NCBI GenBank assembly: GCA_963713725.1
Contig: CAVQMZ010000029.1
Span: forward strand, 100,369 to 164,368
Source: an uncultured Bacteroidota bacterium
Lineage (GTDB): Bacteria; Bacteroidota; Bacteroidia; Bacteroidales; GCA-2748055
DNA length: 64,000 nt
Reading direction: 5' to 3'
Shown: in pieces, positions 1,173 to 53,794 of the stretch
How the letters are laid out: every line of letters starts with the position of its first letter
Numbering within the stretch: the stretch's first letter is position 1
Notes under the pieces: generated by a model
Told to the model about the DNA's origin: nothing
The model's input: only the letters and a program-made list of their open reading frames with translations
Database searches by the model: none
Position numbers and translations under genes: made by a program

Positions 1173-1174
1173 TA

Positions 1175-3545: not shown

Positions 3546-3564
3546 AATTGTTACTTATTTCATG

Positions 3565-5645: not shown

Positions 5646-5743
5646 AATGGAGTGTTCGTTGGTTAGTATCGTGCCAATAAAAGTATTCAATCATCAGCCA
5701 AGGCAATTGCTCCAATCCTCCAAATCCTTGTCGAAATCTGCTC

Positions 5744-7036: not shown

Positions 7037-7086
7037 GTCGGCTTCACTCAGAGTTTTGGACACTTCAGTAATTTTTAACCAGACAC

Positions 7087-24954: not shown

Positions 24955-25755
24955 TCTAATTATCTTCCGTGTCAAATATAACAGCACATACACTTTGAGC
25001 TGGTAATTCTACCGCGTATACTTTTCCTTCCTCATTTAAGACCATATTCCAGTAACAGTAATTATCAAGACCTCCATTTAACCATTGGGCTACCTCACTA
25101 AAACGTCCACGCGCTTGTTGAATATTGTTTTGGCCATCATAACATTCATTGTATCGCCAGGTAAGCCGCCATCCATCTTTCCGGATACTTTCATCCAGCC
25201 CGGGGGACTCCAGGGTGAAGCGAAAATCTGCAGGTCTTTATTCTCTGCTTTGGCAGCCCGCATGAAAGGAAGCACTGATCTGGTATCCCTGTCAACTGAA
25301 AAATGTCTCATTTCATAATCATCCGGCACCTCGCTGTAGCTGTATGCACTTAAACCAAAATCAGATGATCCGACAGCCGTGCGACACATCGAAAATCCGG
25401 ATCCATTAACCGGGCTGAATAAGGCCTCAGCTAAGCTCTTCTGGTCTGTTTCAGACAAATACATAAAAGCATCTCCACCTTGTTCGTTAAAAGCGCCACC
25501 TATTCCACTTAAATTTGGATGAATAATAGTGTTTAAATCAACAATTATCGCGTCATCCTTACCTGAGGCTTTTTTCAGCTTTATGGTTTCTGTAATCACA
25601 GGTTGCGCCGTAATTTTGGCATTGTCAGATAAATCAACATAACTCAGTTGAGCATTCTTGTATGAAGGTTTTGATTCAGCGACACCTTTCGTGTGCACGG
25701 AAACGCAAGCTAAAAATGTAAGGACTATTGATAATTTTAGAAATCCCTTTTTCAT
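24955..25755 (-). pseudogene. GH30-like glycosidase remnant. The N-terminal ~200 aa are joined to short C-terminal pieces, and the catalytic core is missing.
   Basis: ORF 25090..25755 has a signal peptide, IGGAFNEQGGDAF, CRTAVGSSDFGLSAYSYSE and QIFASPWSPPGWMKVSGKMDGG (GH30-type N-terminal and early-barrel motifs). After a frame switch the rest reads ...QARGRFSEVAQWLNGGLDNYCYWNMVLNEEGKVYAVELPAQSVCAVIFDTEDN* (stop 24955..24957). The total is ~265 aa versus ~480-500 expected for GH30. Confidence 0.5.
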
Positions 25756-25905: not shown

Positions 25906-28900
25906 CTAGGAGAATTCGGATGGGGAGTAACCGAATTTCTTTTTGAATGCATGACTGAAATGTGAAGCAGATTCAATGCCCACTTCATACATAACGCTTT
26001 TCACGCTGATGCCAGGATTCCCGGCCAGGAGGTCTGCAGCTGCCTGCAGACGATAATTTCTAAGGTAGGCATTGGGAATTTGGCCTGTCAGTAGTTTTAG
26101 CTTCCGGTAGAGCTGGGAGGTGCTCAGGTTTACCTCAGCAGCAAGTTCCTCCACACCAAAGGATGAATCGTCCAGGTTGTCCTGAATGGCTTTGTTCACC
26201 ATCTCGATGAAATCGGTATCGATTCCGGATATCTGGACATCGGCGGGAAGGGAACTGGATTGGTTAAAATGAGCCTTAAGTTTTTCCCGGTTCTCAATCA
26301 GATTCTGAACTGTTACTTCCAGGTACTTCAGATTAAATGGTTTTGACATATAGGAATCAGCACCATGCACCATGCCCTGGATATGGCTATCGATTTCTTC
26401 CAGTGCAGTAAGAAGGATGAAGGGGATATGGCATAATTGAATGTCTGTTTTGACTTTTTTGCAAAACTCGTATCCGTTAAGGCCGGGCATCATTACGTCA
26501 CTGATAATGATATCCACCTCGCCGGTGGCGGCAATTTCCAGCGCATCCGTTCCGTTTGCTGCTTCAATGATCCGGTATTTCTTTTGAAGTACATTTTTGA
26601 TAATACTTCTGAATTCACTCTCATCGTCAGCAACCAGTACTGTGTTTTTATTATTATTGGCCGGGTTTTTTCCCTGGCTGACGTCATAGCTTATATTGTC
26701 GTGTTCCAGCATTTCGCTGGCATTGAGCCTTCGGATGTCTGTTTTGCTGAAGAGCTCCGAATAGGATTCATCCAGCGGGATACTGACCGAAAAACAGGTC
26801 CTTTCTCCGGGAGTGCTTTCTACCTTTATCTTACCTTTGTGGAGGTCAACGATGGATTTAGCGTAAGACAGCCCTATGCCTGTCCCCATATTTCTTAATT
26901 CTGACCCTGATTGATAGAAGCGTTCAAAAATCTTGTTCAGGTCATCCATTTTAATTCCCGCCCCGGTATCCGACACATCGAAACAGGCGTGTTTTTTTCC
27001 TTCAATTTCGCGTATGCTACCCTCCAGCCGGACTGTTCCATTGGGGGGTGTGAACTTGAATGCATTTGAAAGAAGATTGAACAATACCTGTTCCATTTTC
27101 TCAAGGTCCAGGTTTATTTTGAAACCAGGATCGTATACCTGGTAGTAAAACTGAATCCCTTTCTTCACGGAAAGTGATTCAAAGGCATCGGCAACCGGGT
27201 AAATAAAACCATCCAGGGAGGTCTGGGAGATTTTTAGTTCAAGTCCCGCCTGCTCTATTCTTCTGAAAGTGAGCAATTGATCTATGAGTCGAATCAGTCG
27301 GTTGCTGTTCTTCTCTATCATTTTCACATACTCCTTTTCCTCATCACCATGGACAAGCTCCTGTAGTTTCTGCAGCGGTATTGAAATTAGTGAGAGGGGG
27401 GTTTTAAATTCATGGGAAATGTTTGTAAAGAAGCGAAGCTTTGACTGGTTAACTTCCTCGATCCTTTCTTTGTCCAATTGTTCGAAATGTAGTTTGTTCT
27501 GGAGGTTTTTAAGTTTGATCATATAAATGGAAACGCCAGAGATCAGTGCCAGGGCCAGAACAAAGAAGAGGATTTTGCTGATAGTCCTTGCAAACCAGGG
27601 GGCCATCATGGTGATTTGAAGGGAGGCCTCACTTTCCGAGATAATGCCATCGCAGTTATATCCCCTGACCCTGAATGTATAATCACCGGGTGTCAGGTTT
27701 GTATAGGTGGGGGAAAAGGATCCCTGATTAACATGGATCCACTCCTTGTCGAATCCTTCAAGTATATAAGATATACGGTTCTTTTCCGGAATGGCAGTAT
27801 GGTAGGCGGTTACTTCAATGGAAACGGTCCTGTCGTCCCTGTAAAGGATCAACTCTTCAACTTCAGAAATGTCCTTGTCAAGAATGGTTCTGCCCCCCAC
27901 TTTATCACCCACAGAAACGATTTTATTATTGATTTTAAGATTCGTAAGACGAACATCAGGAGGGATTAAATTTGCACTGATCTGGCCTGGTTTAAAGATG
28001 GTTAAGCCATTTAATCCCCCGAAAAAGTAGTATCCGGAATTGCCCTTATGGTATGCGCTCTGCCTGAAGTTATTGCCAGGGAGCCCATCGTGGATATTAT
28101 AGTTCGTGGTTTTGAATGTCCGTGTATTCAAAACGGATATTCCCATATCCGTTCCGCACCAGAGCGTGGAATCATTCTCTATAATAATCCCGTAAATGGC
28201 ATTGTCCGACAGTCCGATTGTATCCTGGAGTCGTTCAAATTCACGCTCACTGCTTCCCGGGATATCCTTCAGCCTGTTCAATCCGCCGCCAAATGTCCCG
28301 ATCCACAGGCTCTGATTATCGTCCTTCTTCAGACTGAATATTGCATTATTGCTGATGCTGCTTTCATCACTTTCAATATGTTCATGGTGCTCAACCAGAT
28401 GCAGGGAACCTCCCTCCATGCTGAATCTGGATAATCCATGGTTATTGAAACCGACCCAGATTTCCTCGGGGCTCTGCACATTCATGGCCACAATATACCG
28501 GGGATCATCAAAGGAGTAGGAGGACTGGACAGGTATTTTTACTTTCCTGCCTGATCCAAGGTAGCTCCAGGGATCCTCCAGGACAATGATCCGGGATCCG
28601 GCCATCATGATTTTATCCTGATCAATTGGAGCAACATTTCGTATGCTCTCGACGGGTAATTTCTGTCCATTTAATTCAAACTCCACCCGGGTAAAGGATG
28701 CATTTCCCTTGTTATATACTACAATACCATCGAATTCATAGCCCAGCCAGATATTATCGTGTTTGTCCTCATAAAGGGAGAAAATGTTTTTGTCAGGGAA
28801 GATGTCGAACCATTGATCAAAACGGTCAAATTTAAGATCGGACAGGCATTTTATCGTTAATGGGTTCGGTGCTCCGGCAAAGGGGTTGATTATAGGTAGA

Positions 28901-30056
28901 AACCCATAAATAACCCTCACTGTCCTCCAGCACACAATTAATCAGGTTTCCGGGGATGGTCTGTTCATCATAGGGATGGTTCACAAAGTTGGTGAATTGT
29001 TTCTGATTCAGATCCAGTTTACAAAGCCCTGCCTGGGCAGTCCCTATCCAGAGCACGTTGAAGTTATCCTCATACAGGCAATTAATCATATTTCCACTCA
29101 GCCCTCCGCTCTTCCTTGGATCATGGCTGAAATTTGAGAATGTGTCCGCGTCCTTATTATACAGAAGCAGCCCTCCACGCCAGGTTCCGACCCAGATCCT
29201 GTCCTCATTGTCCGCGAGTGATATCAGTAATGTGATTTAAAGCGAGGAGAGATTCGGATCTGGCTCATCCTGGAAGTATTCACTTATTACGATAAGTTTA
29301 TCTCCATCCGTTGTGGTTTTATACAACCCTGCTCTGGGTACCCACCCAGATCATATTATTATGCTTTTTCAGGCAGCTTACAGACTCTTTGATTAAGACC
29401 TCAGCTTCAATTTTCAGGTTCTTCAGGCTTTCTCCCACCGACATTTTAAAAAGACCGGTACTGGTGGCCAGAAGATAACGCCCTTCACCTAACTCCAGGA
29501 GGTCAGTGATATTTAACTCAGAATTTGTGCCCTTCAGCAGGTTGGGTGACCAGAAAGTAATGATGCTGTCTTTATCTGTTTTGGTGCTCACATTGGACAG
29601 GAAATTATCTCCCACCACCCACATGGAACCGTTTGTATCTTCAATGGTCCTGTAAAGTAAACCAAGGGAATCGGATGTGACCTTTATAAATTCCTCCTTA
29701 TCCGGTGAGTAAAGATTTAACCCGCTGCTGGTAACGATCCAGACCAGCCCCTCCCGATCCGAGACGATACTTGTAATGGGGCCGTGATAGACATCCGACT
29801 GGAATTTACTTTCCCAGCTGATATTTTGAAAAGAGTAACCATTATACCTGATTAGTCCATTCGAAGTACCAATCCATATGGTTCCTGTCTTATCCTGATC
29901 AATGGATTTTACGGTATTTTGATTAAATCCCTCGCTGTTGGAAAAGGTGACAAATTGATATGTATTCTCTGCCTGACCGTAAAGCTGTGTCAGGCTAAAA
30001 AGCATGGCCAGGGCCAGGGGAATTATTAAAAAGGAATTACCGCGTTTCATCACCAT
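25906..30056 (-). CDS. Hybrid two-component system sensor kinase / response regulator with an AraC-type HTH (HTCS, ~1380 aa). At least 3 frame breaks in the periplasmic sensor region.
   Basis: Fragments are 29319..30110 (signal/TM, beta-propeller repeats TGTIWIGTSNGLIRYN), 28832..29089 and 25906..28935. The last carries a Y_Y_Y-like TNLTPGDYTFRVRGYN, a TM segment, HisKA FFTNISHEFKTPLSL, HATPase DTGAGI...GTGIGLS, receiver VLVADDE...IISDVMMPGLNGYEF and HTH_AraC ...ESASHFSHAFKKKFGYSPSEF. Confidence 0.85.
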
Positions 30057-30241
30057 TCTGTCTCTGCGTGCAAGATAAACAATATTGATAAATACCAGGC
30101 ACCTTTCCAAAGCTCAAACATAGAATGCCGGCCTGTCTTTCTGTTGCTCAAATGTTGCATTCCTTTGTTCGTTTTTGTAAACCTTGACAATGGGACATGA
30201 GTTTTTCTTACATTGTATTTACCCGAAAAATCCGTGAACAC

Positions 30242-33334: not shown

Positions 33335-34486
33335 TCATTTCAAGTCCAGCGATTTTTCAGCAAAACTGAGCATGATTTCCCTGAGTTCGGTTTTGGAAGG
33401 TTCAATGGGATCATCTCCAACCTGCCGCCAGTTGTGCCCGGCGTTTTTCACTACCAGCAACTCAAGATTGACATCAACTTCCTTTGCCCCGGCTTTAAGT
33501 CCGGTGGCATGGGAAAGGGGCACGGCATGGTCACTGTCTCCCTGCATAAGCAGCAGGGGAGGATCGGAGCTGTCAATGAGGAAATAGGGGCTTACTTCTT
33601 TGAGGGTTTCCATATCCTCACCTGTATAGGTGCTTTTTCCTGTAATATGCCTCGCGTGTCGAATTAAGGGTGAATTCTCCTTGTCCTTATCCAGTGTGCC
33701 TGTGAAGTCGCTTGGTCCGTACCATGAAATCCCTGCAGCAGGATTAACTTTAATCTTTGCTAAACCTGGATCACCGGGAAAATCCTCGGGATCTGAAAAA
33801 GTCAGCATCTGTGCTAAATGCCCACCGGCTGATTCCCCCCAGACAATAATTTTATCAGGGTCTAACTGATAATCCTCTGCATGCTCCTTAAGATACCGAA
33901 GTCCGTCCCAGGAATCTGTTACACATTCCCCGATGAGTACCGTGTCTTTGTCAGGGTCCAGGTTTACCAGCCTGTACCTCACGGAAACGCAGCAGAATCC
34001 TCTTTCAGCAAATTGCAGTGCAGTTTCAGCCCTCAGATCATTCAAGCGCAGGTATTCCTTTGCCCCGCTTCGAAAGCCACCCCCGTGCACGAAATAGAGT
34101 ACAGGTGCCTTGTCATATACGAGGTTTGTTGGCATCAGGATATCCAGGAGTAAGAACTCCTCGCCAATCTTTTTATAAACAATATTGGAGTGGGAGGGAG
34201 CTGGCCACGCGATGGTATCACGTACATAATTAAATCTGAATTCGCTGAGGCTAATAAAATGATCTGAGTCAGCATCCATAGCCGCGAATTTATCCCTTGG
34301 CTCTTGATCAGGATCCTTGGAATGAACCTGGTTCGCGGCCCGGGTTAAATTATCATACTCTTCACGTGATATGAGTCCGTCCCTGCTTTTATCAAAGCGC
34401 CGGAATTCCATGCTGTTCAAGTGGATGCTGTTCAGGGAATCTAAATCGGCCAATGAGGGTATTTGGGTCGCTCTGAGAGAAACCAT
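33335..34486 (-). CDS. Esterase (alpha/beta hydrolase, HGG / GxSxG) with an N-terminal EF-hand pair.
   Basis: Intact 383-aa ORF. There are two canonical 12-residue EF-hand loops, DKSRDGLISREE and DADSDHFISLSE. These are followed by LYFVHGGGFRSG and IIVWGESAGGHLA. No signal peptide is visible at the annotated start. Confidence 0.7.
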   Translation of the reverse strand: MVSLRATQIPSLADLDSLNSIHLNSMEFRRFDKSRDGLISREEYDNLTRAANQVHSKDPDQEPRDKFAAMDADSDHFISLSEFRFNYVRDTIAWPAPSHSNIVYKKIGEEFLLLDILMPTNLVYDKAPVLYFVHGGGFRSGAKEYLRLNDLRAETALQFAERGFCCVSVRYRLVNLDPDKDTVLIGECVTDSWDGLRYLKEHAEDYQLDPDKIIVWGESAGGHLAQMLTFSDPEDFPGDPGLAKIKVNPAAGISWYGPSDFTGTLDKDKENSPLIRHARHITGKSTYTGEDMETLKEVSPYFLIDSSDPPLLLMQGDSDHAVPLSHATGLKAGAKEVDVNLELLVVKNAGHNWRQVGDDPIEPSKTELREIMLSFAEKSLDLK

Positions 34487-34564: not shown

Positions 34565-37500
34565 CTATTTAGCGAGGATGATCCGTTTCATCACCGGGAT
34601 TTCATCTTCAGGATAAATTTTTAAAAGATACATTCCGGGTCCCTGGTCTGAGAGATCAAGTGAAACCTGTTGGGCATCAGGATAATAGACGCGAACAAGA
34701 TTCCCTGACAGAGTGAACAGTTCTACCTTTTTCAGAAGCCTTTCAGTTTGTAGCAATAGCTCTGTAAGCACCGGGTTTGGATAGAGATGAATGGATCCTG
34801 CTTCTAAAACATCAATCGAACTAATGATCTGAAGGTTAAGGTTCAGGGTTGTATCCCCATCAAGAGAAAGCATTCCGCTTTCAGTCTGGTAGCCTTCCTT
34901 TTCCACTGAATATACATAGTCTTCAAACCTGGGCAGATCCTCGTAAAGTACTATCCCAACGGAATTAGTAAACTGCTGTGAACCCTCTACCTTTACATCA
35001 GCCTGCTTTACAGGCTTATCGCCCGAGTAGATTCTGAATTTCAGCTTGGATGAGCTTTCGACCAGTCCAATAGACAGGACCGTATCTTTTGACATATCAA
35101 AGCTGGTTTCAACGGGGAAATACCCCGTTTCGGAAATCGAAAAGCTATGTAAGCCTTCCCAGAGTACGATGTCAACTTCTCCCTGAAGGCCTGTAGTCAG
35201 GTTCTCACCACCAATGGAGACCTGTATTCCGGAGAGTCGTGCCCCGCTATCCACATTCCTGACCGAAAAAGTGGCGGTATATCTTTCCAGGTCAACACCT
35301 ACCGGGGGGCCTTTGAGATCGTCAATGTAGTAGGTATGTCCCAGGGCAAAGCTGTCCTCATCCGGCGAGCTGAAAAAGAGCCAGACCTGGTTATAATCAT
35401 CTCTTCCCAGGGCCCCGGCGCATTCAAAGCTATACTCTACCCATTGATTGGCCAGGAGTACTGGTTTCTCCACGGAGTACTGAGTGAGGCCATTCCCATT
35501 ATTTCGCAGGATCAGCCTTACTTTCGCGATGTCAGGAAGCGGATCACTACCTTCGTAATAAGCCTTTACTTTAAAAGTTGAATAAATGGAAAGGTCCAGT
35601 GTCTCAGGAAGATCAAAATGCACATTGGCCCACTTTCCGATTCCCCTGACCACCTTGCCGGTGAGTTCACTGGGATTATTTTCAGAGATATCAGGGTTTG
35701 CTATCCTGTCCGAGAAACTCATGCCTACCGGGTCTGTCCACGGGTAGCGCTGATCGGCCCCGAAGTCATTATAGAGCAAAAAGCCGGGTTCAGGTTCGGG
35801 AACTGAAATGCAGGTATCACAGGGCTCAACCGGGATCCAGACCTTGTTTTTATATTCGCCCCTTAGGATCACCCGGGTGGTATCACGAACCAGTGTATCA
35901 AGCAGCGCGAAGCGAATATGGGAGGATGCCTGGCTCTTGTTCACACCATAGCCCAGTAGCCTGATGAATTCAACATTACCCGCATAGGGCCGGTAGACTA
36001 CCTGGTGCTCGTAGCTTTCATATTCAGGATCTGCAGGATCGTAAGGGTTGATGAAGGGTAGTGTATCAACTTCGTGATACAGATCAGGACTAATGAACTG
36101 CATTCCTGTTTCGGTATTCTCCATGAGGAAGATTGGCACCATATGCTCTATGGGCGACGCAAAAAGTTTAACATCATCGGTGAACGCACTGTCCAGGGCT
36201 TCCATGCCTACTATAGTCAGGGGTGAGAATTCCGGGTCAGGCATTATAAATCCATAATCGGTGGCGTTCGCAAGGCTCCTCGCTTTTGCATGGACCTCCT
36301 TCATGGTACCGTTAATATAGAAAACACGGTAATAAAAGCTTGTCCCCGGGTTGATGTCAAGTCTTTGATTGACGGTGAATACAGAATAATTCCGGTTCTC
36401 ATCACCGGTCCCGTCACCCCACCTGATCCGCGTGGATTTCATATTATGGCTTACCTGTAAGTCCTCATAATGTTTATCCTTTCCAAAAACAAGGGCCATA
36501 GCCGGTCGGTTTTCATCCTCCCCCTCAGCAGCCCAGATGAAATATCCACCACTCTGGTTTATATTATCCAGCAGGCCCTGTTCTCCATCACCCCCGAAGA
36601 GTTTGTAAGTACGTTCCAGGGAGTCGTTGGGGTGGGACAGCCAGCACTGGGGCAGGTTTGCGACCGTACCCCTCCCCAGGGCATATTCAGATAATCCACC
36701 TTATGCTCACCAAAATTCTGGATGCACAAAGTGTTTTCCAAAATTCCGCTGCCCAGGTCCCTGTATTTGTAGGTGTACAGAAGTTGTGACTTATGTATGC
36801 TGGGTACATGGGCCTGCTGTCCCCAGTTCATGGTGTGAAAAGCCCTGTTTGTTTCATCATACCATGAAGCCATCAGGGGACTGTAAAAGGGTTTATTGGT
36901 CCGGGCGAAGAGGGTATCGTTCATGTATACCCCGCACCATGAATAAAATAGCGCATACTGGGTACCTGGGGTCTTCCCAGGGTGGATCCGGGGGGTGCGA
37001 CTATCTCATCAGCGTTGTGCCTCTCGCTTGAAAGAGCCACGATCTGCCAGAGGTCATCCACCCAGCGGGCCGTGTTAAAATCCCAGGAGCGGTATTGAGG
37101 GGGAACACCTTCCCCGTAGGGTCCGATAAAAGAGTAGATAGCTCCCCCTTTTGAAATCCGGAGATCCCACAGAAGCGAGTCCGGCTCAGAGCTGTGGCTT
37201 AACCTTGCATGGTATACATCCTCTTCCTTACACTGCTCTTGCCATTGGCTTCCCGATGGCTCGTATTCGGTGCTAAACCTTGAACTTCCTTTGTATTCAG
37301 GAATGCTGTCGCTTTGGTATTCGGGTATAAAAGAAAACAACAGGCTGTCCAGGGCATCCTCGGGAGAACGATCAATGATGGTGCTGTCCACCGGCCCGGA
37401 TAAGGGCGTGTAATTTTCCCATTCAATCTTTGCCTCTTTGGTGTTTATGTTTACCCAGACCTTCGCATGTTCAAACTCGCGGGTGTACTCCCAGCCATCC

Positions 37501-38567
37501 TGAACCGCATCTCCCAGGGGCTCGCCCAGGGGCCTGTCAAACTCATCATACCAGTCAAGGGAGCCATGTGTTTCCCTGTATCCCCAAGAGTAACAAAAGT
37601 AAGAATAGGGTTGAGCGGCCACAAGGAAGCAGGCCAGGGGGAAGGTGATCTTTTCCCTGGCTTCCTGGAGCAGGTCCTCGTATGGTTCTGCCATCTTTTC
37701 ACTATCGGTCCAGTTAAAGCCGGGGAAGGCCTTCATGATTACTATTTTCCCCTGTTTACCGGCCTCGGTCATATCCGCCATGTCCTGCCGAATACTCTCC
37801 CTGGAGGTGCTCGCAAAATGGTCAAAGTGTTCAATGGCGGCGGCATCTGTGATTCCCAGGTAGTCCATCCCAAAATGAAGATCATCCGTATTCCGTATCC
37901 CATTATACATCAATATGGCAGATGAGTCTGTAACTTCCCGGGTGAGACGGATCAGTTCGATTAGCCCGTCCTGAATGGAATCAAATTTCTCCTGTCCCCA
38001 GAGCGCAATATTGGCTTCACTGGTGATTTGTGGGAAGGCATCCATAAATACCCCGTCACAGGATCTCTCCATCACTGCCTTACGGACCTCCTCGGCCCAC
38101 CATTCCCTGACTTCTTGATTGGACAGGTCATATCTTTTTATTCTGCCGTTTTTCAGGTCCAGTGTACCGTCCTGGTGGTATAGCCACCATTCGGGAAAAC
38201 TCTCGTAAACATCATGTGCATCGAACATGGAATAATCCAGGAAGGTGTTCCAGTAGTAAATCAGCTTCAGCTTCGGGTTGACCGCTTTTAGCCTTTGAGT
38301 ATCAAAATATATTCCAGCCTCAGTGGATCCATGTGGATTTATCCCGTGCGCTTTTTCCAGACACACAAAATCCGAATGAGTGGCCACAAAATTGACTTCC
38401 TCGTCGCTTAAACCATCGTTTTTTCCAAAATGAATGTAGACGGGAACCGTTTCCCAGCTGAAAGGCGGGTAATAGTCAGGAGCCTCAGCAGGATCCTGCT
38501 GAGCGTTCACAAGCAGGGCTGAGGAAAGACAGAGGATGGCGAAAAAAGAGAATCGTATCTTCTTCAT
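34565..38567 (-). CDS. ~1330-aa T9SS-sorted modular protein: signal peptide, GHL-style TIM-barrel-like domain (copy 3), ~550-aa unknown region, CBM-like jelly-roll, two beta-sandwich repeats, T9SS C-terminal domain. Two frame breaks as read.
   Basis: ORFs 36921..38630, 36559..36924 and 34565..36499 are colinear. Junction 1 is at the C4 run 36930..36933 (repaired reading ...YFIHGAGVYMNDTLFART...). Junction 2 is near 36650 (...NMPWGGV / ANLPQCWLSHPNDSLERTYKLFGG...). The C-terminus IHLYPNPVLTELLL...GMYLLKIYPEDEIPVMKRIILAK is a T9SS CTD. Confidence 0.6.
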
Positions 38568-38595
38568 TATCGGAATCTGATTACTGTGTGGACTG

Positions 38596-39741
38596 TTATT
38601 TCCAGTCGATCGTTGCCTGTTTTGTTTCAATGTTTACCCAGACTTTGCAATGTTCAAATTCGCGGGTAAATTCCCAGCCGGTCCTAACAGCATCTCCTTT
38701 GGGATTCCCCAGGGGCTTTTCAAACTCCGGGTAGGAATCCAGTGATCCATGCTGATTCCTGTAGCCCCAGGAATAACAAAAATAGGAGTAGGGCTGCGCC
38801 GCTACCAGGAAACAGGCAAGGGGAAAGGTAATATTCTCACGGGCCTTCCTTAAGAGCTCTTCATGGGATTGATTCATTTCTTCCTTTTCGGTCCAGTTAA
38901 ACCCTGGCCAACCCTTCATAACGACGATCTGTCCCTTCTTTCCGGCTTCGATCATATTTTCCATATCCAGGGCAACATTCTCCTTGTCAGTACTGGCAAA
39001 TTGGTCGAAATGTTCGATGGTTGATGCATCTGTGATATCAATGAATTGCATGCCATAGTGGAGTTCATTTGTATTTCTGATGCCATTGTACATGATGATG
39101 TTATCTGAACCGATCTTTTCCCTTGTAAGCTCAATGGTTTTTATAAGCCCCTCCTGTATGGCATCATATTTCTCCTGTCCCCAGAGCTTTATGTTAGCCG
39201 GACTGGTAATTTGAGGAAAGGCATCCATGAATACCCCGTCGCAAGAGCCATCGATTACAGCCTTTTTTACTTCTTCTGTCCACCATTCCCTCACTTCCGG
39301 GTTCGAAAGATCATAGCGCATCAGATCCCCTCTCTTATAATCCAGTGAGCCATCCAGCTTCCTGAGCCACCATTCCGGGTGCTCAGCGTAAACATCGTGA
39401 GCATCGTACATGGCGTAGTCGAGGAAGGTATTCCAGTAATAGACAACTTTCAAATCAGGATTGATCTTTTTAAGACGGGCAGCATCGGATTCAATCCCTT
39501 TCTCGGTAGACCCGTGGACCTTTGTCCCATGACCCTTTTCGAAGCATACAAAATCGGAGTGGGTGGCGACGAATTTAAGCTCCTCTTCGGTAAGCACGTC
39601 ACTTTTACCAAAGTGAATGTAAACAGGGACTTTATCCCAGCTCCATTCAGGGTACATCTTGTTCTGGACCTCGGTTTTTTCCTTGCAGCCCATAAGTAGA
39701 ATCAGGAGAATTGAAATGAGTATTCCAGCAATAGATTTCAT
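38596..39741 (-). CDS. Putative glycoside hydrolase lipoprotein, GHL-style TIM-barrel-like domain (copy 2). Tandem paralog of the N-terminus of 34565..38567.
   Basis: Intact 381-aa ORF with lipobox LLMGC. It carries VPVYIHFGKSD, FVATHSDFVCFEKGHG, VVYYWNTF, SCDGVFMDAFPQI, IIMYNGIRN, IEHFDQF, ACFLVAAQPYSYFCYSWGY and WEFTREFEHCKVWVNIETKQATIDW. It is closely similar to residues ~45-400 of ORF 36921..38630. Confidence 0.6.
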   Translation of the reverse strand: MKSIAGILISILLILLMGCKEKTEVQNKMYPEWSWDKVPVYIHFGKSDVLTEEELKFVATHSDFVCFEKGHGTKVHGSTEKGIESDAARLKKINPDLKVVYYWNTFLDYAMYDAHDVYAEHPEWWLRKLDGSLDYKRGDLMRYDLSNPEVREWWTEEVKKAVIDGSCDGVFMDAFPQITSPANIKLWGQEKYDAIQEGLIKTIELTREKIGSDNIIMYNGIRNTNELHYGMQFIDITDASTIEHFDQFASTDKENVALDMENMIEAGKKGQIVVMKGWPGFNWTEKEEMNQSHEELLRKARENITFPLACFLVAAQPYSYFCYSWGYRNQHGSLDSYPEFEKPLGNPKGDAVRTGWEFTREFEHCKVWVNIETKQATIDWK

Positions 39742-39778: not shown

Positions 39779-40837
39779 TTATTGACCGGTCCAGTTATTA
39801 ATTTTCAGAACAGCACCGGTTCCCAATTCGCGTTCATTCCTGGCCAGGGCCATAAAGAGGTATTCAGGTTCACCATTTTTCCACAGGATATGCGCCCTTT
39901 CAAACCTGAGGATGGGCTCGTCGAAATAGAAGGCGTTGGTTTGAATAGCTATCTCGGGTTTCTCCCAATTCACACCGTTCTCAGATTCATAGATTAAACC
40001 GGGTCGCCATCCTCCTATTCGCACCGTATCGGGATCGGAGGGGGTAGCTGTATAAGTGCTGGCCACATCCATCCTGTCTTCCAGGATCATGTAATATTTC
40101 CCCCTGTAAATGAAGTTGTATGAGTCTTCTACATCCAGGCCAGCCTCCACATAGCTGATCATAGGGTTGTCGGGATGAGGTGTATAAGGACCCTCGATTT
40201 TGTCCGAGCTGGCCAGTGAGATGGTTCGCAGGTATGGATCATCAGGTTGATCGGAAACAGTCTTATAGTAGATCCTGTATTTTCCCTCCAGGTCTTTATG
40301 AAAGGAGGGGTTCGAGGCATGGAGACAATCGAAGCTTCCTGGTATAAAAGAAGGGGCAAGGACCGGATTATAGGGACTCTCCACCCAGGGTCCGTCCAGT
40401 GAGGCGGATGTGGCTAATCCAACCTGTTGATTCATCCTGGGCAGGGACCTCTCCTTATAGGCGTATACCATAACATACAATCCATCTAGCTGGTTGATCT
40501 GAGGATTGTAGTAGCTAATGGTATCGTTCTGGAAAACTGTATCGAGCAAAGTATAAGGACCCTCCGGTCGATCGGCTATCATATGCACGATCTGGGCGTT
40601 TACCAGCCAGTCGCCATCGCTGGGCCAACGACCGACAAAAAGATGAACCCTGCCCTGCTTATCATAGATGGGAGCCATATCCCAGTTTGCCCACTCGGGA
40701 TCATCCAGGATTCGCTGACCGGCTTCAAGGGACTTGCAGAAATCGGAAACCTTCATTTGATCATCGGAACATGAATATCCCAGAGCAAAAACAATGGGGA
40801 TGATCAGCAAGAGGGATTTGTTGAGTATTAATTTCAT
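39779..40837 (-). CDS. Lipoprotein with a five-bladed beta-propeller GH-like signature (GH43/GH117-clan-like). Family uncertain.
   Basis: Intact 352-aa ORF with lipobox ALGYSC. It has repeated blade-like strings (GRVHLFVGRW, DGLYVMVYAY, SASLDGPWVESPYNPVL, GKYRIYYKT, SSDKIEGPYTPHPDNPMI, GKYYMILEDR). The call rests on pattern resemblance only. Confidence 0.35.
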   Translation of the reverse strand: MKLILNKSLLLIIPIVFALGYSCSDDQMKVSDFCKSLEAGQRILDDPEWANWDMAPIYDKQGRVHLFVGRWPSDGDWLVNAQIVHMIADRPEGPYTLLDTVFQNDTISYYNPQINQLDGLYVMVYAYKERSLPRMNQQVGLATSASLDGPWVESPYNPVLAPSFIPGSFDCLHASNPSFHKDLEGKYRIYYKTVSDQPDDPYLRTISLASSDKIEGPYTPHPDNPMISYVEAGLDVEDSYNFIYRGKYYMILEDRMDVASTYTATPSDPDTVRIGGWRPGLIYESENGVNWEKPEIAIQTNAFYFDEPILRFERAHILWKNGEPEYLFMALARNERELGTGAVLKINNWTGQ

Positions 40838-40972: not shown

Positions 40973-42268
40973 TCAGCTTACCGGTTTGTGAGTTTTAATA
41001 TAATCCGGATCAATAATGATACCCAGTCCTGATCCTTCGGGGGCCTTTATCTTGCCATCAATACTTTCAAATGGTCCTGCCTTACTTTCCACCGGAATAG
41101 TTGTTCCATTGGCATCATAGGTTTGGAAGGTCTTAAATTCGTGGTATTTGTCGGCATTCGGGCATACAGAGACCATATGAATCAGGTAAAGGAATCCCAG
41201 TCCCCCGCCTGAAATATGCGGCGAGGTCCTGATCCCTGCGGCTTCTGCCATCCGGGCGACCTTCATGGAACGGATCATACCACCATTGTAAAACAGGTCG
41301 GGCATGATTACCCCGAAAGCATGGTTGCCGATCAGCCAGCGGAAAACCCGTTCGCTGAATTCCTCTTCTCCGCCCGCCATGGTTATATTCAGGGTCCGGG
41401 CTATCTGGGCCTGCTCCTCGTACCAGGTCCACGGAACAGGCTCCTCATACCAGTAATAGTTGTATTCTTCAAGCATCCGGCCGATTCGCAATGCTTCCTT
41501 CACATCATAGCTGCCGTTCCCGTCAATCATCAGGACCATATCGTCGCCAAAAAACTCACGGGCCATTCGGATCAGTTTTTCTGTCCGCCCCGGTGCATTT
41601 TCATGATTAAGGCCCAGGTTATCACCACTTCCTGCCCGTACCTTTATCGCTTTAGATCCGATCTCCTCGTTATCCTGTCTCATCAGTTCCAGGGATTCCT
41701 CCGGTTCAAGGGTGCGAAATTCACTTAAGCGATGCCCCAGATAAATCCCGATCTCAGGATTTTCAAGCTCCCCCAGTAGTCGTCCGGCTGGTTTATCGGC
41801 AATAATCCCAAGCATATCCAGGATGGCAAATTCAATACCCGCGATTTGCACGCATAGCGGCACACCCTGGTTTTTCACAGGTCCCTCTGCAGCATGGAAT
41901 ATCAGATTGTCGAGATCACGTGCATCTTTTCCAAGGAACATCCTCTGAAGGAGGTTGGTAAACATGGGATAAGAGTTCCTGGCAATAAAGGGATGCCCGA
42001 TGGAGATTCCCTCAGCACCATCCCTGGAACGCACCCGGTAAATTGTGTTGTTCCTGTCTCTCAGTAATTCCAGCGATTCGATGATCACCGGGTCGGGAAA
42101 AAGTTCCCTTCTCAAAACGGGTTTAGCCAGAGCTGCGTCAAGTGCGGAGTAGTCCGGGGGACCGCAATCACTCTCTCCGGCTGGATTGCAGGATGTCAGG
42201 GGAAAAAAAGCTGATGCTCCGCCGATGGCGGCAGCGCTTGTTAAAAACTGTCTTCTGTTGGTACGCAT
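40973..42268 (-). CDS. Enolase-superfamily (mandelate racemase / muconate lactonizing enzyme-like, acid-sugar dehydratase-like) protein with a twin-arginine signal and lipobox.
   Basis: The start is taken at the internal Met, MRTNRRQFLTSAAAIGGASAFFPLTSC (RRxFL Tat motif plus LTSC). Upstream ORF residues overlap the sulfatase 3' end and look non-coding. The MR/MLE-type metal-ligand pattern is MLMIDGNGSY, YYWYEEPV, MAGGEEEF, with a later PHISGGG. Confidence 0.7.
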   Translation of the reverse strand: MRTNRRQFLTSAAAIGGASAFFPLTSCNPAGESDCGPPDYSALDAALAKPVLRRELFPDPVIIESLELLRDRNNTIYRVRSRDGAEGISIGHPFIARNSYPMFTNLLQRMFLGKDARDLDNLIFHAAEGPVKNQGVPLCVQIAGIEFAILDMLGIIADKPAGRLLGELENPEIGIYLGHRLSEFRTLEPEESLELMRQDNEEIGSKAIKVRAGSGDNLGLNHENAPGRTEKLIRMAREFFGDDMVLMIDGNGSYDVKEALRIGRMLEEYNYYWYEEPVPWTWYEEQAQIARTLNITMAGGEEEFSERVFRWLIGNHAFGVIMPDLFYNGGMIRSMKVARMAEAAGIRTSPHISGGGLGFLYLIHMVSVCPNADKYHEFKTFQTYDANGTTIPVESKAGPFESIDGKIKAPEGSGLGIIIDPDYIKTHKPVS

Positions 42269-42299
42269 GCTTAAGTGTTTAGAATTACTATTAAAGGAG

Positions 42300-43922
42300 C
42301 TACTTCCCAACAGTAATCTGTTTAACAATTTTTTCTCTTTGAGTCTCCCACAGGGATACCAGCTCTTCCAGCTTCTCCGGATTTTCAGTGGCCAGGTTAT
42401 GGCATTCACCCCGGTCCACCGACAGGTCATATAATTCCCAGTCACCATCCTCCTCGATGGTGGCAATTTTCCAGTTTTCATGCCGCAATGCCTTCTTTTG
42501 CTCGTGGTTCCAAAAGATGGGCGGCCTTTCGCTCAGGGCATCCTCCTTTAGAAAGGGGACCAGGCTGATCCCGGGGGCTTCAAATTGTCCATCCAGTTCG
42601 GCCGGGTCACCCCCGGCCAGCTCAAGCAGGGTGGGGGCAATATCGATAATGTGTGCAGGCATGTTTCTGAAGCTGTTTTCTCCACGGATGCCTTTGGGCC
42701 AGTGAACCACAAGAGGGGTGGCTATCCCGCCCTCATGCAACCATGTTTTGTGCAGTCTGAAGGGGGTATTGGCAGCAGTGGACCATCCGGGACCCAGACA
42801 GATATAAGAATCTGCCGATCCAGGAACAGAACCGATGGTATGTTTGTCTGCCCGGTTCATTTGCTCGGTACTGGCTCCATTGTCGGAGCAGAAAAAGATA
42901 ATGGTGTTGTCCAGATAGCCCAGATCCTTGAGCGTATTCACATATCGACCTATCTCCCTGTCCATTCGGGTAATCATGGCTGCATGAATGGCCATTTTAA
43001 CGGCCTGAAACTCCTGCTGTTCCGGGGATAGGTCATCCCATGGGATGGCGCGTCCTGTTTCTGCCGGATCAATCTGACTGACAAGTTCTTCCGGTGTAAG
43101 GTTCCAGGGTGCATAGCGTTCAGGCTCCAGGGGGTATATCTCCTGGGCCTCAAAACCCATTACCTCCCTGTTTTCTGCCCTGTATTTTCTTACTTCATCC
43201 CATCCCAAAAGGAATTCCTCCCGGTACATATCAATATCCTTTTGCATGGCCTGCAAAGGGAAGTGAGGTGCAATAAAGGCAATGTATTCAAAAAAGGGCT
43301 CGCTTGGCTTTTTTTCGTGGTGTTCCTTCAGGTATTTAATGGCATGATCCACAATGTCTACAGAAGCTTCGTATTCAGAACCGGTCCCGGGAAGGGCGAT
43401 GGAATCTCCGTCTTCAATCAGGATTTTCGGACGAAGGTGACGTCCGTCTTCGGTCCTGTAAGAATGGTCAAAACCAACTTCGGTGTGACTCAAAACGCGG
43501 TATTCGGGAGCTCTTCTGAAGATATGCCATTTTCCAGAGTGGTAAGTGCTGTAACCATGCTCTTTCAGGAGGGCAGGTAACCAGGTTTCATTGACAGGTG
43601 CGAAAAGACCGGCAGTAAAGTCCACTCCCTGTATGGGATCGGATAAAACCTGGTGAGGATAGTACCCCGAAAGTAAACTGGTCCGAGTGGGCCAGCAGCG
43701 TCCCGTATTATAAAAATTGGTAAAGCGAAGTCCCTTTCTGGCTAAAGCATCAACATTCGGGGTTTCAATAATTTCGGCACCATAAGAACCCAGGTCCGAA
43801 TGGCCCATGTCGTCGGCCAGGATGAAGACAATGTTTGGTTTTTCCAATTCATTGGGAGTACACCCATTTATTGCAAATATACCCATCATGGCAAGAGTCA
43901 GCAGGCTCAGTTCTTTTCTCAT
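42300..43922 (-). CDS. Sulfatase (Cys-type, CWPTR variant), lipoprotein.
   Basis: Intact 540-aa ORF with signal and lipobox (FAINGC), NIVFILADDMGHSDLGSYG, GRCWPTRTSLLSGYYPHQ, GKWH, CSDNGAS and GGIATPLVVHWPKGI. Confidence 0.9.
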   Translation of the reverse strand: MRKELSLLTLAMMGIFAINGCTPNELEKPNIVFILADDMGHSDLGSYGAEIIETPNVDALARKGLRFTNFYNTGRCWPTRTSLLSGYYPHQVLSDPIQGVDFTAGLFAPVNETWLPALLKEHGYSTYHSGKWHIFRRAPEYRVLSHTEVGFDHSYRTEDGRHLRPKILIEDGDSIALPGTGSEYEASVDIVDHAIKYLKEHHEKKPSEPFFEYIAFIAPHFPLQAMQKDIDMYREEFLLGWDEVRKYRAENREVMGFEAQEIYPLEPERYAPWNLTPEELVSQIDPAETGRAIPWDDLSPEQQEFQAVKMAIHAAMITRMDREIGRYVNTLKDLGYLDNTIIFFCSDNGASTEQMNRADKHTIGSVPGSADSYICLGPGWSTAANTPFRLHKTWLHEGGIATPLVVHWPKGIRGENSFRNMPAHIIDIAPTLLELAGGDPAELDGQFEAPGISLVPFLKEDALSERPPIFWNHEQKKALRHENWKIATIEEDGDWELYDLSVDRGECHNLATENPEKLEELVSLWETQREKIVKQITVGK

Positions 43923-49304: not shown

Positions 49305-52015
49305 ATGTCAAATGTAAAACGCGTCTATACTTTTGGTGACAGAAAAGCCGAAGGTAAAGCCGACATGAAAAACTTATTGGGCGGAAAAGGTGCCAACCTT
49401 GCAGAGATGAACCTGATTGGCGTACCTGTACCTCCAGGATTTACGATTACCACTGAGGTCTGTACTGAATATAACGCTCTGGGTCAGGATAAAGTTGTTG
49501 AGCTGATCAAGGCTGAAGTTGAAGCTGCTGTAAAGAATATTGAAGATATCATGGGAACCAAGTTCGGGAGCAATGAGAATCCCTGCTTGGTTTCTGTACG
49601 TTCAGGTGCAAGGGTATCCATGCCAGGTATGATGGATACTGTTCTGAACCTGGGAATGAATGAGGATGCTGTTCAGGGACTGATCAACAAGACCGGCAAT
49701 GAAAAATTTGCCTGGGACAGCTACCGTCGTTTCGTTCAGATGTATGGTGACGTTGTTCTGGGAATGAAGCCCGAATCCAAAGAAGACATTGATCCTTTCG
49801 AAGGGAATCATGGAAGAGCTGAAGGAAGCACGTGGCGTTGAAAACGACAACGAGCTTACTGTAGAGGACCTGAAAGAGATGGTCGAGAAATTTAAGGCTG
49901 CCGTTAAAAAGCAGACAGGTCATGATTTCCCTGCTGATCCATGGGAGCAGCTCTGGGGAGCTGTAATGGCTGTATTTGATAGCTGGGAAACTCCAAGGGC
50001 TCAGTACTACCGCAACATGAACCAGATTCCCAATGACTGGGGAACTGCTGTGAACGTTCAGGCCATGGTTTATGGTAACATGGGAGAAACTTCCGGAACT
50101 GGTGTGGCTTTCACACGTGATGCAGGAACAGGTGAAGACATCTTTAATGGTGAGTACCTGATCGATGCCCAGGGAGAAGATGTGGTTGCCGGTGTGCGTA
50201 CACCCCGCCAGATTACCAAAGAGGGTTCACTGAGGTGGGCCGAGCTTGCAGGTGTATCTGAAGAGGAGCGTGCTGCTGACTATCCTTCACTTGAAGAGGT
50301 AATGCCTTCAGTATATGCTGAACTGCACGAGACCGAGCAGAAACTGGAAGATTATTTCGCAGATATGCAGGACCTGGAATTCACCATTCAGGAAGGTAAA
50401 CTCTGGTTGCTGCAGACCCGTAACGGAAAACGTACCGGTGCTGCCATGGTAAAAATCGCCATGGACATGCTCCGCGAAGGTAAACTGGATGAGAAGACTG
50501 CATTGCTTCGTCAGGAGCCTGCAAAATTGGACGAATTACTTCACCCTGTATTTGAAAAGGGTGCGCTTAAAAGTGCAACTGTACTTGCTCAGGGACTACC
50601 CGCATCTCCAGGTGCTGCCACCGGACAAATTGTATTCTTTGCCGATGAGGCTACCAAGTATCCTGTATCCATCCTGGTTAGGATCGAGACTTCACCAGAG
50701 GATCTTGAGGGTATGAATATTGCCAAAGGTATTCTGACTGCTCGTGGAGGTATGACTTCCCACGCTGCTGTTGTTGCCCGTGGAATGGGTAAATGCTGTG
50801 TGTCCGGAGCAGGTGGTGTAAAGATCGATTATAAAGCCCGCACCATGACTTGTGCTGGAAAAGTGTTCAAAGAAGGTGACTGGATCTCCCTGAATGGTTC
50901 CACCGGTAATGTTCTGGAAGGAAAAGTAGCCACCATCGATCCCGAACTGAGTGGTGACTTTGGAGCCATCCTTGAACTGGCTGAGAAGCACACAAAAATG
51001 GACGTCCGTACCAATGCTGATAGTCCGCACGATGCGAAAGTTGCCCGTGACTTTGGAGCTAAAGGTATTGGTCTGACCCGTACCGAGCACATGTTCTTCG
51101 AAGGAGAGCGCATCAAGGCAATGAGAGAGATGATTCTTGCCACTGCTGAAGGAGAGCGTCGCAAGGCACTGGATAAATTGCTTCCTTACCAGCGTGAGGA
51201 CTTCGAGGGCATCCTTGAAGCCATGGCCGGATATGGAGTAACCATCCGTCTGCTGGATCCGCCTCTGCATGAGTTTGTTCCCCACGATGAGGCCAACCAG
51301 AAGATTATGGCTGAGGAAATGGGAATCAGCGTTGCCGATATCCAGGCCCTCGTTGAGGACCTCCATGAATTTAACCCCATGCTGGGACACCGTGGATGCC
51401 GCCTTGGGAAATACCTATCCTGAAATCACCGAGATGCAGGCCAGGGCCATCATCGAGGCTGCTGTAAACCTTACCCAGAAGGGTGTGGATGCACGTCCCG
51501 AGATCATGGTTCCCCTGATTGGCACCTGGAAAGAATTCAAGATGCAGGAAGAGATCATCAGGGCAACTGCCGAAAAGGTATTTGAGGAAAAAGGAGCCAG
51601 GTGTGCGTACCAGGTTGGAACAATGATTGAGATCCCCAGGGCTGCAATGACAGCTGACCTGATTGCTGAACATGCGGAATTTTTCTCATTCGGAACCAAT
51701 GACCTGACCCAGATGGCCTTCGGTTATTCAAGGGATGATGCAGGTAAATTCCTGCCCATCTATATTGAAAAAGGTTTGCTGAAAAACGATCCTTTCCAGA
51801 CCCTTGACCAGGAAGGTGTTGGGCAACTGGTGGAAATGGGTGTTGCTAAAGGCCGTTCAACCAAGCCTGATCTTAAGGTTGGTATCTGTGGAGAGCACGG
51901 TGGAGATCCCGAATCAGTGGAGTTCTGTCACCGCGTTGGAATGAACTACGTAAGTTGTTCACCCTTCCGCGTACCCATCGCCAGATTGGCTGCTGCACAG
52001 GCAAACCTGAGGTAG
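49305..52015 (+). CDS. ppdK: Pyruvate, phosphate dikinase. Two frame breaks as read.
   Basis: ORFs 49305..49841 ([11 protein letters not shown]...[25 protein letters not shown]), 49789..51423 ([19 protein letters not shown] phospho-His loop) and 51269..52015 ([12 protein letters not shown]..., [10 protein letters not shown]) are colinear. Together they give ~903 aa. Confidence 0.9.
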
Positions 52016-52175: not shown

Positions 52176-53794
52176 ATGAGTGAAATAATAAAGAAATTGA
52201 AACTTGATCAATACGGGATCACAGATGTAAAGGAAGTTGTTTATAATCCTTCCTATGAGCAGCTGTATAAAGAGGAAATGGATCCTTCCCTTGAAGGATT
52301 TGAAAAGGGAATTGAAAGTGAATATGGCGCAGTAAGTGTGGATACAGGTATTTTCACAGGGCGTTCACCAAAGGACAAGTATATTGTGAAGGATGAGACA
52401 ACCACAGGATACTGTTTGGTGGAAATCCGATAAAGCAAAAACTTCAGATAACAAGCCTATCAATAAGGAAGTGTGGAGTCATGGTTATGACCTGGCCTCA
52501 AACCAGCTTTCGGGAAAGCGACTTTTTGTTCTGGATGGTTTTTGCGGAGCCAATGAGGATACAAGGCTGAAGGTAAGGTTTGTCATGGAAGTTGCCTGGC
52601 AGGCTCATTTTGTTAAAAATATGTTCATCCGTCCCAGCTGAAGAGGATCTTGAGGATTTTGAACCTGATTTTGTGGTTTTAAATGCTTCGAAAACCACCA
52701 ATCCCAAATGGAAAGAGCAGGGACTTAACTCCGATGTATTTGTTTTCTTTAATCTGACCGAAAAGAAGGCTGTAATTGGTGGATCATGGTATGGTGGGGA
52801 GATGAAGAAGGGTATTTTCTCTGTAATGAATTATTACCTGCCCCTGAATGGGATGGCAGCCATGCATTGTTCAGCCAATGTGAACGATGAAGGTGAAACG
52901 GCTATTTTCTTTGGACTGTCCGGAACCGGAAAAACTACCCTGTCCACTGATCCCAAGCGCAAACTGATTGGTGATGATGAGCATGGCTGGGATGATGACG
53001 GCATCTTTAATTTCGAAGGGGGATGTTATGCAAAGACCATTAACCTGAGCGAAGAGAGTGAGCCTGATATTTTCAATGCCATTAAACGGGATGCTCTGCT
53101 TGAGAATGTGTTGTGGCCGCCGATGGTAAAGTGGATTTTGATGATGGTTCCAAAACCCAGAACACCAGGGTGTCTTATCCGATTTACCACATTGATAATA
53201 TTGTAAAACCCGTATCCAAAGCCGGGCATGCTAACAAGGTGATTTTCCTTACTGCTGATGCTTTTGGTGTAATGCCTCCCGTATCTAAACTGACCCACGA
53301 CCAGACCCAGTACCATTTCTTATCAGGTTTTACCGCCAAACTTGCCGGTACTGAAAGGGGAGTAACCGAGCCGGTTCCCACTTTCTCTGCCTGTTTTGGT
53401 GCGGCCTTCCTCACACTTCATCCTACCAGGTACGGACAGGAGCTGGTAAAAAGGATGGATGCTGCCGGATCCTCGGCCTACCTGGTGAACACAGGTTGGA
53501 ATGGAACTGGAAAGCGAATTTCAATCAAGGATACCCGAAAGATCATTGATGCCATTCTGGACGGATCCATTGATAGTGCACCCACAAAGCAGATTCCTTA
53601 TTTCAATCTTGGAGGTTCCCACCGAGCTTCACGATGTTGATCCAGGAATCCTGGATCCAAGGGATACTTATGCGATCCTACTGAATGGGATAAGAAAGCA
53701 AGAGATCTGGCAGAGCGCTTTATTAAGAACTTCGAGCAGTTTACCGACAATGAAGAGGGAAAGACCCTGGTGGCAGCCGGACCTCAGCTTATAA
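52176..53794 (+). CDS. pckA: Phosphoenolpyruvate carboxykinase (ATP). Four frame breaks as read.
   Basis: Five colinear fragments: 52176..52433 ([14 protein letters not shown]), 52393..52641, 52580..53206 ([21 protein letters not shown]), 53113..53640 ([15 protein letters not shown]) and 53501..53794. Together they give ~539 aa. Confidence 0.9.

Follow-up and report, generated by a model that had tools for sequence, protein, structure and literature searches.

Four predicted GH168 endo-fucanase domains, one of them in tandem with GH174, in a sulfated-fucan locus of an uncultured Bacteroidota bacterium

A stretch of 64,000 nucleotides from an uncultured Bacteroidota bacterium (contig CAVQMZ010000029.1 of assembly GCA_963713725.1, positions 100,369 to 164,368; referred to here as the window) encodes four copies of a domain of ~350 residues, all on the minus strand. 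With high confidence, these copies are predicted to be paralogous catalytic domains of CAZy family GH168 (Pfam GHL15). The family is a known one: copies 1-3 shared 52-65% identity with GH168 enzymes whose crystal structures and biochemistry are established (phmmer E-values from 1e-122 to 6e-169). The repeated domain is not new, contrary to the original prediction from the DNA letters, which had called it uncharacterised and could not place it in a characterised CAZy family. Copy 1 (38596..39741) is a stand-alone protein of 381 residues with a lipoprotein-type signal (..LLMGC followed by KEK). When this protein was used as the tblastn query, matches were obtained at 38567..37416 (copy 2; 64.6% identity, E 7e-176), 13443..12352 (copy 3; 36.4% identity, E 6e-64) and 17440..16475 (copy 4; 34.0% identity, E 3e-57), and no fifth copy was found in the window with this query. 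The domain of copy 2 (37416..38483) belongs to gene 2 (34565..38567), a conceptual product of 1332-1334 residues predicted to be secreted by the type IX secretion system (T9SS), and copy 3 (12346..13587) encodes 413 residues with a signal peptide. The gene of copy 4 (15146..17510) consists of a signal peptide, a divergent GH168 domain (~16448..17443) and a GH29 domain followed by Fucosidase_C (15146..~16446). Pairwise identities in a MAFFT alignment were 65% between copies 1 and 2, 33-36% between these two and copy 3, and 26-35% between copy 4 and the rest. The four copies had been noticed before and the number stood, but two of the four open reading frames (ORFs) proposed for them were not intact: 34565..38567 was found in three pieces in three frames, and 15146..17510 is broken by an extra T at 17444.

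All four copies matched Pfam GHL15 (PF14885), as had been suspected, with E-values of 1.4e-48, 1.4e-41, 1.2e-44 and 4.1e-22 for copies 1 to 4, respectively. In phmmer searches against the PDB, copy 1 matched PbFucA (8rg3, E 2e-140), MeGH168 (9nhf, 2.9e-140) and Fun168E (9jom, 2.5e-123), and copy 2 matched the same three enzymes (9nhf, 9.9e-133; 8rg3, 1e-132; 9jom, 9e-122). Copy 3 was closest to Pb41GH168_IV (9jos, 5.6e-169; 65% identity) and Fun168A (8ya6, 2.9e-148; 60% identity), while copy 4 matched PbFucA at about 1e-50 (8RG5, 8e-51) with ~34% identity. The PDB sequence matches of all four copies were GH168 structures only, and the titles and papers of the matched entries name CAZy GH168 endo-fucanases (PbFucA, Rho5174, MeGH168, Fun168A, Fun168D, Fun168E and Pb41GH168_IV). 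No GH107 chain was among the PDB matches of copy 1 at E<=10 by phmmer, although GH107 structures exist in the PDB. A common ancestry of GH168 and GH107 has been proposed as a distant one only, in the GH168 paper. GH168 was founded in 2020 with Fun168A (PMC7401878) and was divided in 2025 into four subfamilies with defined subsite specificities (PMC12534559); its members are retaining endo-alpha-L-fucanases acting on sulfated fucans or fucoidans. GH168 had stood among the families proposed for searching, and the family search landed there, which supports the idea that the domain would act as an endo-acting sulfated-fucan hydrolase of the locus.

To map the active site, the PDB sequences were taken from the HMMER alignments and aligned with the four copies, and codon coordinates were checked. 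Seven residues are conserved across GH168, namely a Glu-Lys "polar knuckle" pair, a Tyr-x-Asn pair, an Asp, an Asn and a Glu (PMC10778895; PMC12534559), and all seven were invariant in the four copies and in six PDB sequences. Five of these positions are numbered E65, K66, Y99, N101 and N218 in Fun168D and E81, K82, Y115, N117 and N234 in FWf5. Copy 1 carries E68-K69, Y102/N104, D173 (39223..39225), N219 and E243 (39013..39015); the Asp and Glu of copy 2 are D176 (38040..38042) and E246 (37830..37832), and copy 3 has D206 (12970..12972), N246 and E266 (12790..12792), all on the minus strand. Copy 4 keeps E58-K59, Y95/N97, D165, N198 and E223. The pairs D173/E243, D176/E246, D206/E266 and D165/E223 of copies 1 to 4 aligned with the known catalytic pairs of Fun168A (D206/E264), Rho5174 (D152/E228) and MeGH168 (D167/E237), and the spacing between Asp and Glu fits that of the Fun168A and Rho5174 pairs. 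The nucleophile column was anchored by the inactive mutant 9JP3 (D171A), which differs from 9JOS at exactly the aligned Asp.

The invariant Asp (the last residue of CDGVFMD, CDGAFID or LDGVFLD) and the invariant Glu (in IEHF, FEHY or IEFF) had been picked out from the letters alone, and both were present in all four copies. Among the strings said to be common to every copy, those with the Asp and the Glu held, but in copy 4 ASYLLFHGPNSYY and WVYTRDFENLTVTI stand in place of ACFL..AQPYS.F and WE[FY]TREFEH..VWV, and the pattern CDG[VA]F[ML]D does not fit the CDGAFID of copy 3. The Trp of an S/G-W-G-Y/W motif was found in copies 1-3 and in all PDB sequences and is replaced by Ser292 in copy 4; it probably corresponds to W332 (Fun168D numbering), a Trp conserved in the -1 subsite and located close to the C-terminus.

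Given the 52-65% identity to crystal structures, copies 1-3 would fold as (beta/alpha)8 barrels with a small C-terminal beta-sheet subdomain. The AF2 model of copy 4 (pLDDT 68, pTM 0.71) showed alternating beta/alpha elements and C-terminal strands. The fold search proposed earlier was run on this model, and the top 17 Foldseek matches were all GH168 (E 4e-22 to 1.5e-17, TM ~0.7), followed by the next match at E 5e-8. The results support the expected (beta/alpha)8 glycosidase fold, in which the catalytic Asp and Glu sit on beta-strands. By analogy with what is known for GH168, the Asp ending beta-4 (D173, D176, D206 and D165 in copies 1 to 4) would serve as the nucleophile and the Glu on beta-6 (E243, E246, E266 and E223) as the acid/base, whereas the polar knuckle, the Tyr-x-Asn pair and the further Asn would hold a 2-O-sulfated fucose in subsite -1 and a 2-O-sulfate in subsite -2.

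The residues around this center point to two of the published subfamilies. The subfamily I signature Q155/R200/H222/W262 of WfGH168_I was kept as Q177, R222, H244 and W283 in copy 1 and as Q180, R225, H247 and W286 in copy 2. The numbering map used for this comparison was validated by the recovery in 9JOM of all seven residue types quoted in PMC12534559. In copy 3, residues W99, R135 and the "ridge" Q172 of the subfamily IV enzyme Pb41GH168_IV were kept as W130, R166 and Q207; W99 and R135 lie at the -1 sulfate site of that enzyme, and the Q172 ridge follows the nucleophile (PMC12534559). On the basis of the published subfamily rules (PMC12534559), the subfamily I-like copies 1 and 2 are expected to cleave alpha-1,3 linkages that join two 2-O-sulfated fucose (Fuc2S) units, and for the subfamily IV copy 3 the expected cleavage site lies between a Fuc2S and an unsulfated fucose.

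Gene 2 holds a second catalytic domain, which had been overlooked in the original prediction. After its three reading frames were joined conceptually, domain searches gave the order of signal peptide, GH168 (copy 2), GH174, a beta-sandwich region resembling a carbohydrate-binding module (CBM), a PEGA/CarboxypepD_reg-like region and Por_Secre_tail. Residues ~392-912, corresponding to the GH174 endo-1,3-fucanase domain at 35822..37394 on the minus strand, matched PDB 8JD7 with an E-value of 4.1e-140 over 520 aligned residues across both junctions of the pieces, and 9k1g with 6.6e-42 (phmmer); the PDB title of 8JD7 is "endo-1,3-fucanase GH174A". The critical residues of Fun174A are D119, E120 and E218 (review PMC11943901), and their equivalents in gene 2 are Asp, Asp (37053..37058) and Glu (36736..36738). 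The Asp at the position of E120 (WVDDLWQ) keeps the carboxylate and was also found in two counterparts of gene 2, the protein P0001 and the related locus L004. For the C-terminal half of this domain, the AF2 model had a pLDDT of 31 and was unusable; its Foldseek match to 8JD7 was sequence-driven and gives the title only. The T9SS type A C-terminal sorting domain (34568..34786, minus strand) was detected by Pfam Por_Secre_tail (5e-6) and NCBIfam TIGR04183 (7e-7).

The tandem of GH168 and GH174 appeared to be rare. In an exhaustive HMMER search of 1.84 billion representatives with the first ORF piece of gene 2 as the query, only one protein, P0001 (1332 residues, one 50%-identity cluster), spanned GH168 and the start of GH174. 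A homologue search with the GH174 half gave a single match, and the frequency of the tandem is taken from the HMMER search. The architecture was not mentioned in literature passages naming both families, within the parts of those papers that were covered. P0001 was 73% identical to the joined gene 2 end to end and collinear with it, and the gene order of its short-read contig (GH43-like, GH168, GH168-GH174) is that of the window. Counterparts of gene 2 were also present in the related loci L004 and L005. We favour, with modest confidence and as one joint view, that gene 2 would be intact in the living organism as a T9SS-secreted chain with a CBM-like module and two unrelated endo-fucanase domains, namely the TIM barrel of GH168 subfamily I and the beta-rich domain of GH174, which would jointly cut differently sulfated sites of the same fucan chain, and that the clade of copy 4 could be an undescribed GH168 specificity group. 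The GH168-GH174 tandem is the sole modestly new feature of the locus.

Several points weigh against the reading of the four copies as GH168 endo-fucanases, the first of which concern the activities themselves. Family membership does not fix linkage, and the activity of the window proteins is predicted from sequence. FWf5, a GH168 enzyme 57% identical to Fun168A, cuts alpha-1,4 bonds as an endo-1->4-alpha-L-fucanase (PMC10778895), even though its putative active-site residues are reported to be identical to those of FunA. No activity has been assigned to MeGH168, and the authors of its structure suggested that its beta-hairpin might permit exo action or alpha-1,4 substrates. Copies 1 and 2 aligned without gaps to MeGH168 in this hairpin region (52-55% identity), and PbFucA and Rho5174 are active on brown-algal fucoidans. 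It is therefore conceivable, if unlikely, that the domains belong to GH168 but that at least one of them, especially copy 3, cuts alpha-1,4 bonds like FWf5 or acts in an exo manner. On the other side, all 16 of the 16 GH168 enzymes assayed across the four subfamilies in the 2025 survey cleaved alpha-1,3 bonds, with a specificity that followed the subfamily (PMC12534559), and the subfamily signature residues are retained in copies 1-3. The alpha-1,3 specificities given above are preferred for these three copies.

Copy 4 raises a similar question. It was not assignable to a published subfamily. The His after the acid/base is replaced by Phe (F224), the SWGY motif has Ser (S292) at its Trp position, which is probably that of the conserved -1 Trp, the subfamily I +1 Gln is replaced by Lys, and two loops are deleted. 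These substitutions are real rather than sequencing errors because the same changes recur in the relatives L006, L008 and L011. Its clade recombines freely and was found alone, beside GH29, fused to GH29 and, in L011, fused to a GH43-like domain. Such features could mean that canonical GH168 function was lost or altered in this domain, with another substrate, another -1 chemistry, or a role mainly as a binding or positioning module for GH29. We regard this as doubtful, since the nucleophile, the acid/base, the polar knuckle, the Tyr-x-Asn pair and the Asn are intact, Lys and Arg at +1 are the state described for subfamily II (PMC12534559), and the fold model retrieved GH168 structures only as its top matches. 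Judged from these residues, copy 4 is best described as a divergent GH168 clade with an altered -1 pocket.

The fusion of copy 4 to GH29 also has a point against it. Besides GHL15, the gene matched Alpha_L_fucos (PF01120, 1.9e-59, profile positions 12-345 of 345) and Fucosidase_C (PF16757, 1.9e-7). The junction of GH168 and GH29, "KIEPHAFTPLKKIEPNWES", lies on a run of four C (16456..16459) and a run of seven A (16447..16453). In L006, the GH168 protein stands alone, is 89% identical to copy 4 and ends in "HAFTP*"; in L008, whose GH168 part is 88% identical, GH168 and GH29 are separate genes and the GH29 has its own signal peptide. In the window, neither the stop nor the GH29 signal peptide is present and the reading frame continues. 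If the C run were one base shorter, the stop would reappear exactly at the end point of L006, but the GH29 would then have neither a start codon nor a signal peptide. In L006 (133..948; 1486..2607), the GH168 gene adjoins a gene with an N-terminal methylation motif and DUF1559, features typical of Planctomycetota and their relatives. This suggests a recent transfer of the copy 4 clade between phyla, as proposed for GH168 (PMC11685898).

A further point against the reading is that the frameshifts stand in the sole available sequence, so real pseudogenes are possible. Gene 2 consists of three open pieces in three frames (38633->36924, 37005->36562 and 36700->34568), and both frameshifts lie inside the GH174 domain. 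At the first (36930..36933, minus strand), one base is missing at a G run, where relatives read HGAGVYMNDT in one frame; at the second (36655..36660, minus strand), one base is missing at CAAACC, where relatives read GGVRA(Q/E)NLPQCW in one frame. In the gene of copy 4, the extra T at 17444 separates the frame of the signal peptide MRSILFLSLSLAIGIHLTAQDY (17510..17445) from that of the body, and L006 and L008 read "YPD(G/R)IQRYGHGF" across this site. As assembled, two frameshifts thus interrupt 34565..38567 and one interrupts 15146..17510; a second assembly of the same organism was looked for and not found, nor was a close relative of the window found in a genome scan, in which the best match was L004 with 84.5% nucleotide identity. 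On these grounds, copies 2 and 4 might be genuine pseudogenes, with copies 1 and 3 as the only functional ones. However, frameshifts of the same type break central-metabolism genes and many others in the window: PPDK is split into three ORFs and PEPCK into at least two, the gene of a hybrid two-component system (HTCS) regulator, sulfatase genes and GH29 genes are split, and a GH30 gene is truncated (breaks of this type lie at 49305..52015 and 52580..53640 on the plus strand and at 25906..30110, 19016..20754, 6284..9432 and 25090..25755 on the minus strand). The coding sequence of gene 2 is fully conserved apart from the single-base indels, with no stops within the frames. Near the junctions, the alignment of gene 2 with P0001 had only single-residue gaps at the two frameshift sites. 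Neither site is frameshifted in L004, which carries different indels, with ~30 other small ones at places where the window keeps its frame. Since splits also affect PPDK and PEPCK and P0001 is an intact ortholog of 1332 residues, the three frameshifts are quite probably indel errors of a long-read assembly, and pseudogenisation of copies 2 and 4 is rather improbable. Programmed frameshifting was set aside, as many unrelated genes carry breaks of this type.

The alternative that the domain is of GH114 type or defines a CAZy family that is new or uncharacterised, for which several automatic depositor names in the PDB ("GH114 TIM-barrel domain-containing protein") and the lack of an NCBIfam model for GH168 (and likewise for GH174) might speak, has practically no chance against the identity of copies 1-3 to characterised enzymes and PDB titles that read GH168. 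Those molecule names are automatic labels on GH168 entries. GH114 was rejected as an identity for the domain: the Pfam Glyco_hydro_114 model had no match at E<=0.1 for any copy, and the GH114 type named in the original prediction fell with it.

Around the four copies, the locus contains at least seven sulfatase genes or fragments, at least three GH29 genes, esterases, a major facilitator superfamily (MFS) transporter, an HTCS regulator and two T9SS cargo proteins, and the sulfatase and GH29 context claimed for it is real. No SusC/SusD pair was seen among the ORFs scanned, which is a last point against the main reading. The second T9SS cargo protein (20880..24944, minus strand; 1354 residues) comprises an N-terminal region of 900 residues, a fucolectin/CBM47-like F5/8 type C module, a CarboxypepD_reg-like region and Por_Secre_tail. 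The N-terminal 900 residues had no Pfam or PDB match; this region was 51% identical to a 1059-residue "glycoside hydrolase" of Wenyingzhuangia aestuarii and probably belongs to the GH187 endo-fucanase family. At 1..5690 on the minus strand, fragmented ORFs gave matches to the GH141 insertion domain and to right-handed beta-helices. GH141 endo-fucanases were recently reported (PMC12786026), and these pieces may represent a further backbone-cleaving enzyme of the locus. The amplified domain can thus no longer be singled out as the best backbone-cleaving candidate, as had been claimed, given the GH174 domain, the probable GH187-type protein and the GH141-like pieces. Its copy number is not unusual either, as Wenyingzhuangia fucanilytica has seven GH168 genes, and the view of the two fusions as special to the locus was not supported, as a fusion of GH168 to exo-fucosidase domains was reported in Planctomycetota.

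From the signal sequences, a cellular layout can be proposed. Gene 2, with GH168, GH174, the CBM-like region and the T9SS tail, would act outside the cell, where the two T9SS cargo proteins (gene 2 and 20880..24944) would make the first cuts. Copy 1 as a lipoprotein, together with copy 3 and the GH168-GH29 protein, both presumably periplasmic, would act next with S1 sulfatases, GH29 fucosidases and esterases. The products would be taken up by the MFS permease, and the locus would be regulated by the hybrid two-component system. An origin in Bacteroidota is also indicated by the T9SS tails, the HTCS and the label of L004.

Three neighbouring genes, all on the minus strand, are also of note. Directly upstream of copy 1, 39779..40837 encodes a lipoprotein-like protein of 352 residues with a weak GH43 match (8e-9) and a GH117 as its best PDB match (E 3e-4). 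The same arrangement occurs in L005 (940..1998), and in L011 (5845..7977) and L012 a domain of this type is fused to a GH168 of the copy 4 type; it is a recurrent, uncharacterised beta-propeller partner of GH168. The gene at 40973..42481 encodes an enolase-superfamily (MR_MLE_C) protein. A twin-arginine-like motif, MRTNRRQFLTSAAAIGGASAF, lies inside its mechanically called ORF and probably marks the real start, which would give an exported enolase-superfamily enzyme inside the fucan locus. Directly downstream of gene 2, 33335..34486 encodes an esterase (BD-FAE/alpha-beta hydrolase) with an N-terminal EF-hand pair, and in L005 a GH29 occupies the position of this esterase.

The main value of these results lies in the correct annotation of a dense sulfated-fucan/fucoidan utilisation locus in an uncultured Bacteroidota bacterium, which is ordinary but richly equipped. 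Alongside sulfatases and GH29 fucosidases, three or four families of endo-fucanases are represented in it: GH168 with four domains, GH174, probably GH187, and pieces resembling GH141. The turnover of fucoidan is relevant to marine carbon storage, and defined endo-fucanases are sought as tools for the production of fucan oligosaccharides. The locus offers new GH168 members whose specificities can be predicted by the published subfamily rules and a rare natural GH168-GH174 tandem enzyme that can be tested for synergy. It opens no new question and extends a family already under active structural study.

Among known enzymes, copies 1 and 2 resemble Fun168E (= WfGH168_I; 9JOM/9JOO), PbFucA (8RG3-5) and MeGH168 (9NHF). 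Their alignments to these enzymes run over the full length with no large gap, identity to PbFucA and MeGH168 is 52-55%, and all catalytic and -1/-2 subsite residues are shared. Compared with Fun168E, both keep K114, but R205 is replaced by Leu and Q227 by Ala, at variable +2/+3 residues. Unlike these three enzymes, copy 1 is a lipoprotein, and copy 2 is the N-terminal module of a 1332-residue T9SS protein. Copy 3 resembles Pb41GH168_IV (9JOS/9JP2/9JP3) and Fun168A (8YA6/8YA7) in the shortened loop after the nucleophile, the "ridge" Gln that follows it (FIDQ) and the Trp and Arg at the -1 sulfate site; it differs from them as a new sequence from an uncultured Bacteroidota bacterium, with a linkage that is uncertain given FWf5. 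The gene of copy 4 joins GH168 to GH29, just as GH168 is coupled to exo-fucosidase domains in Planctomycetota (PMC11685898). L009 carries a GH29-GH168 fusion in the order opposite to that of the window, and GH168 and GH29 are adjoining genes in L008, L013 and L029. Compared with L008, the nearest relative with both genes, the window fuses them, and its GH168 part is from the divergent clade. The GH174 domain of gene 2 is like that of 8JD7 ("GH174A"; Fun174A of Wenyingzhuangia aestuarii) in that a CBM-like region and a T9SS tail follow in both, and differs from Fun174A in sitting behind a GH168 domain, in the Asp at the position of E120 and in the two frameshifts inside it as assembled.

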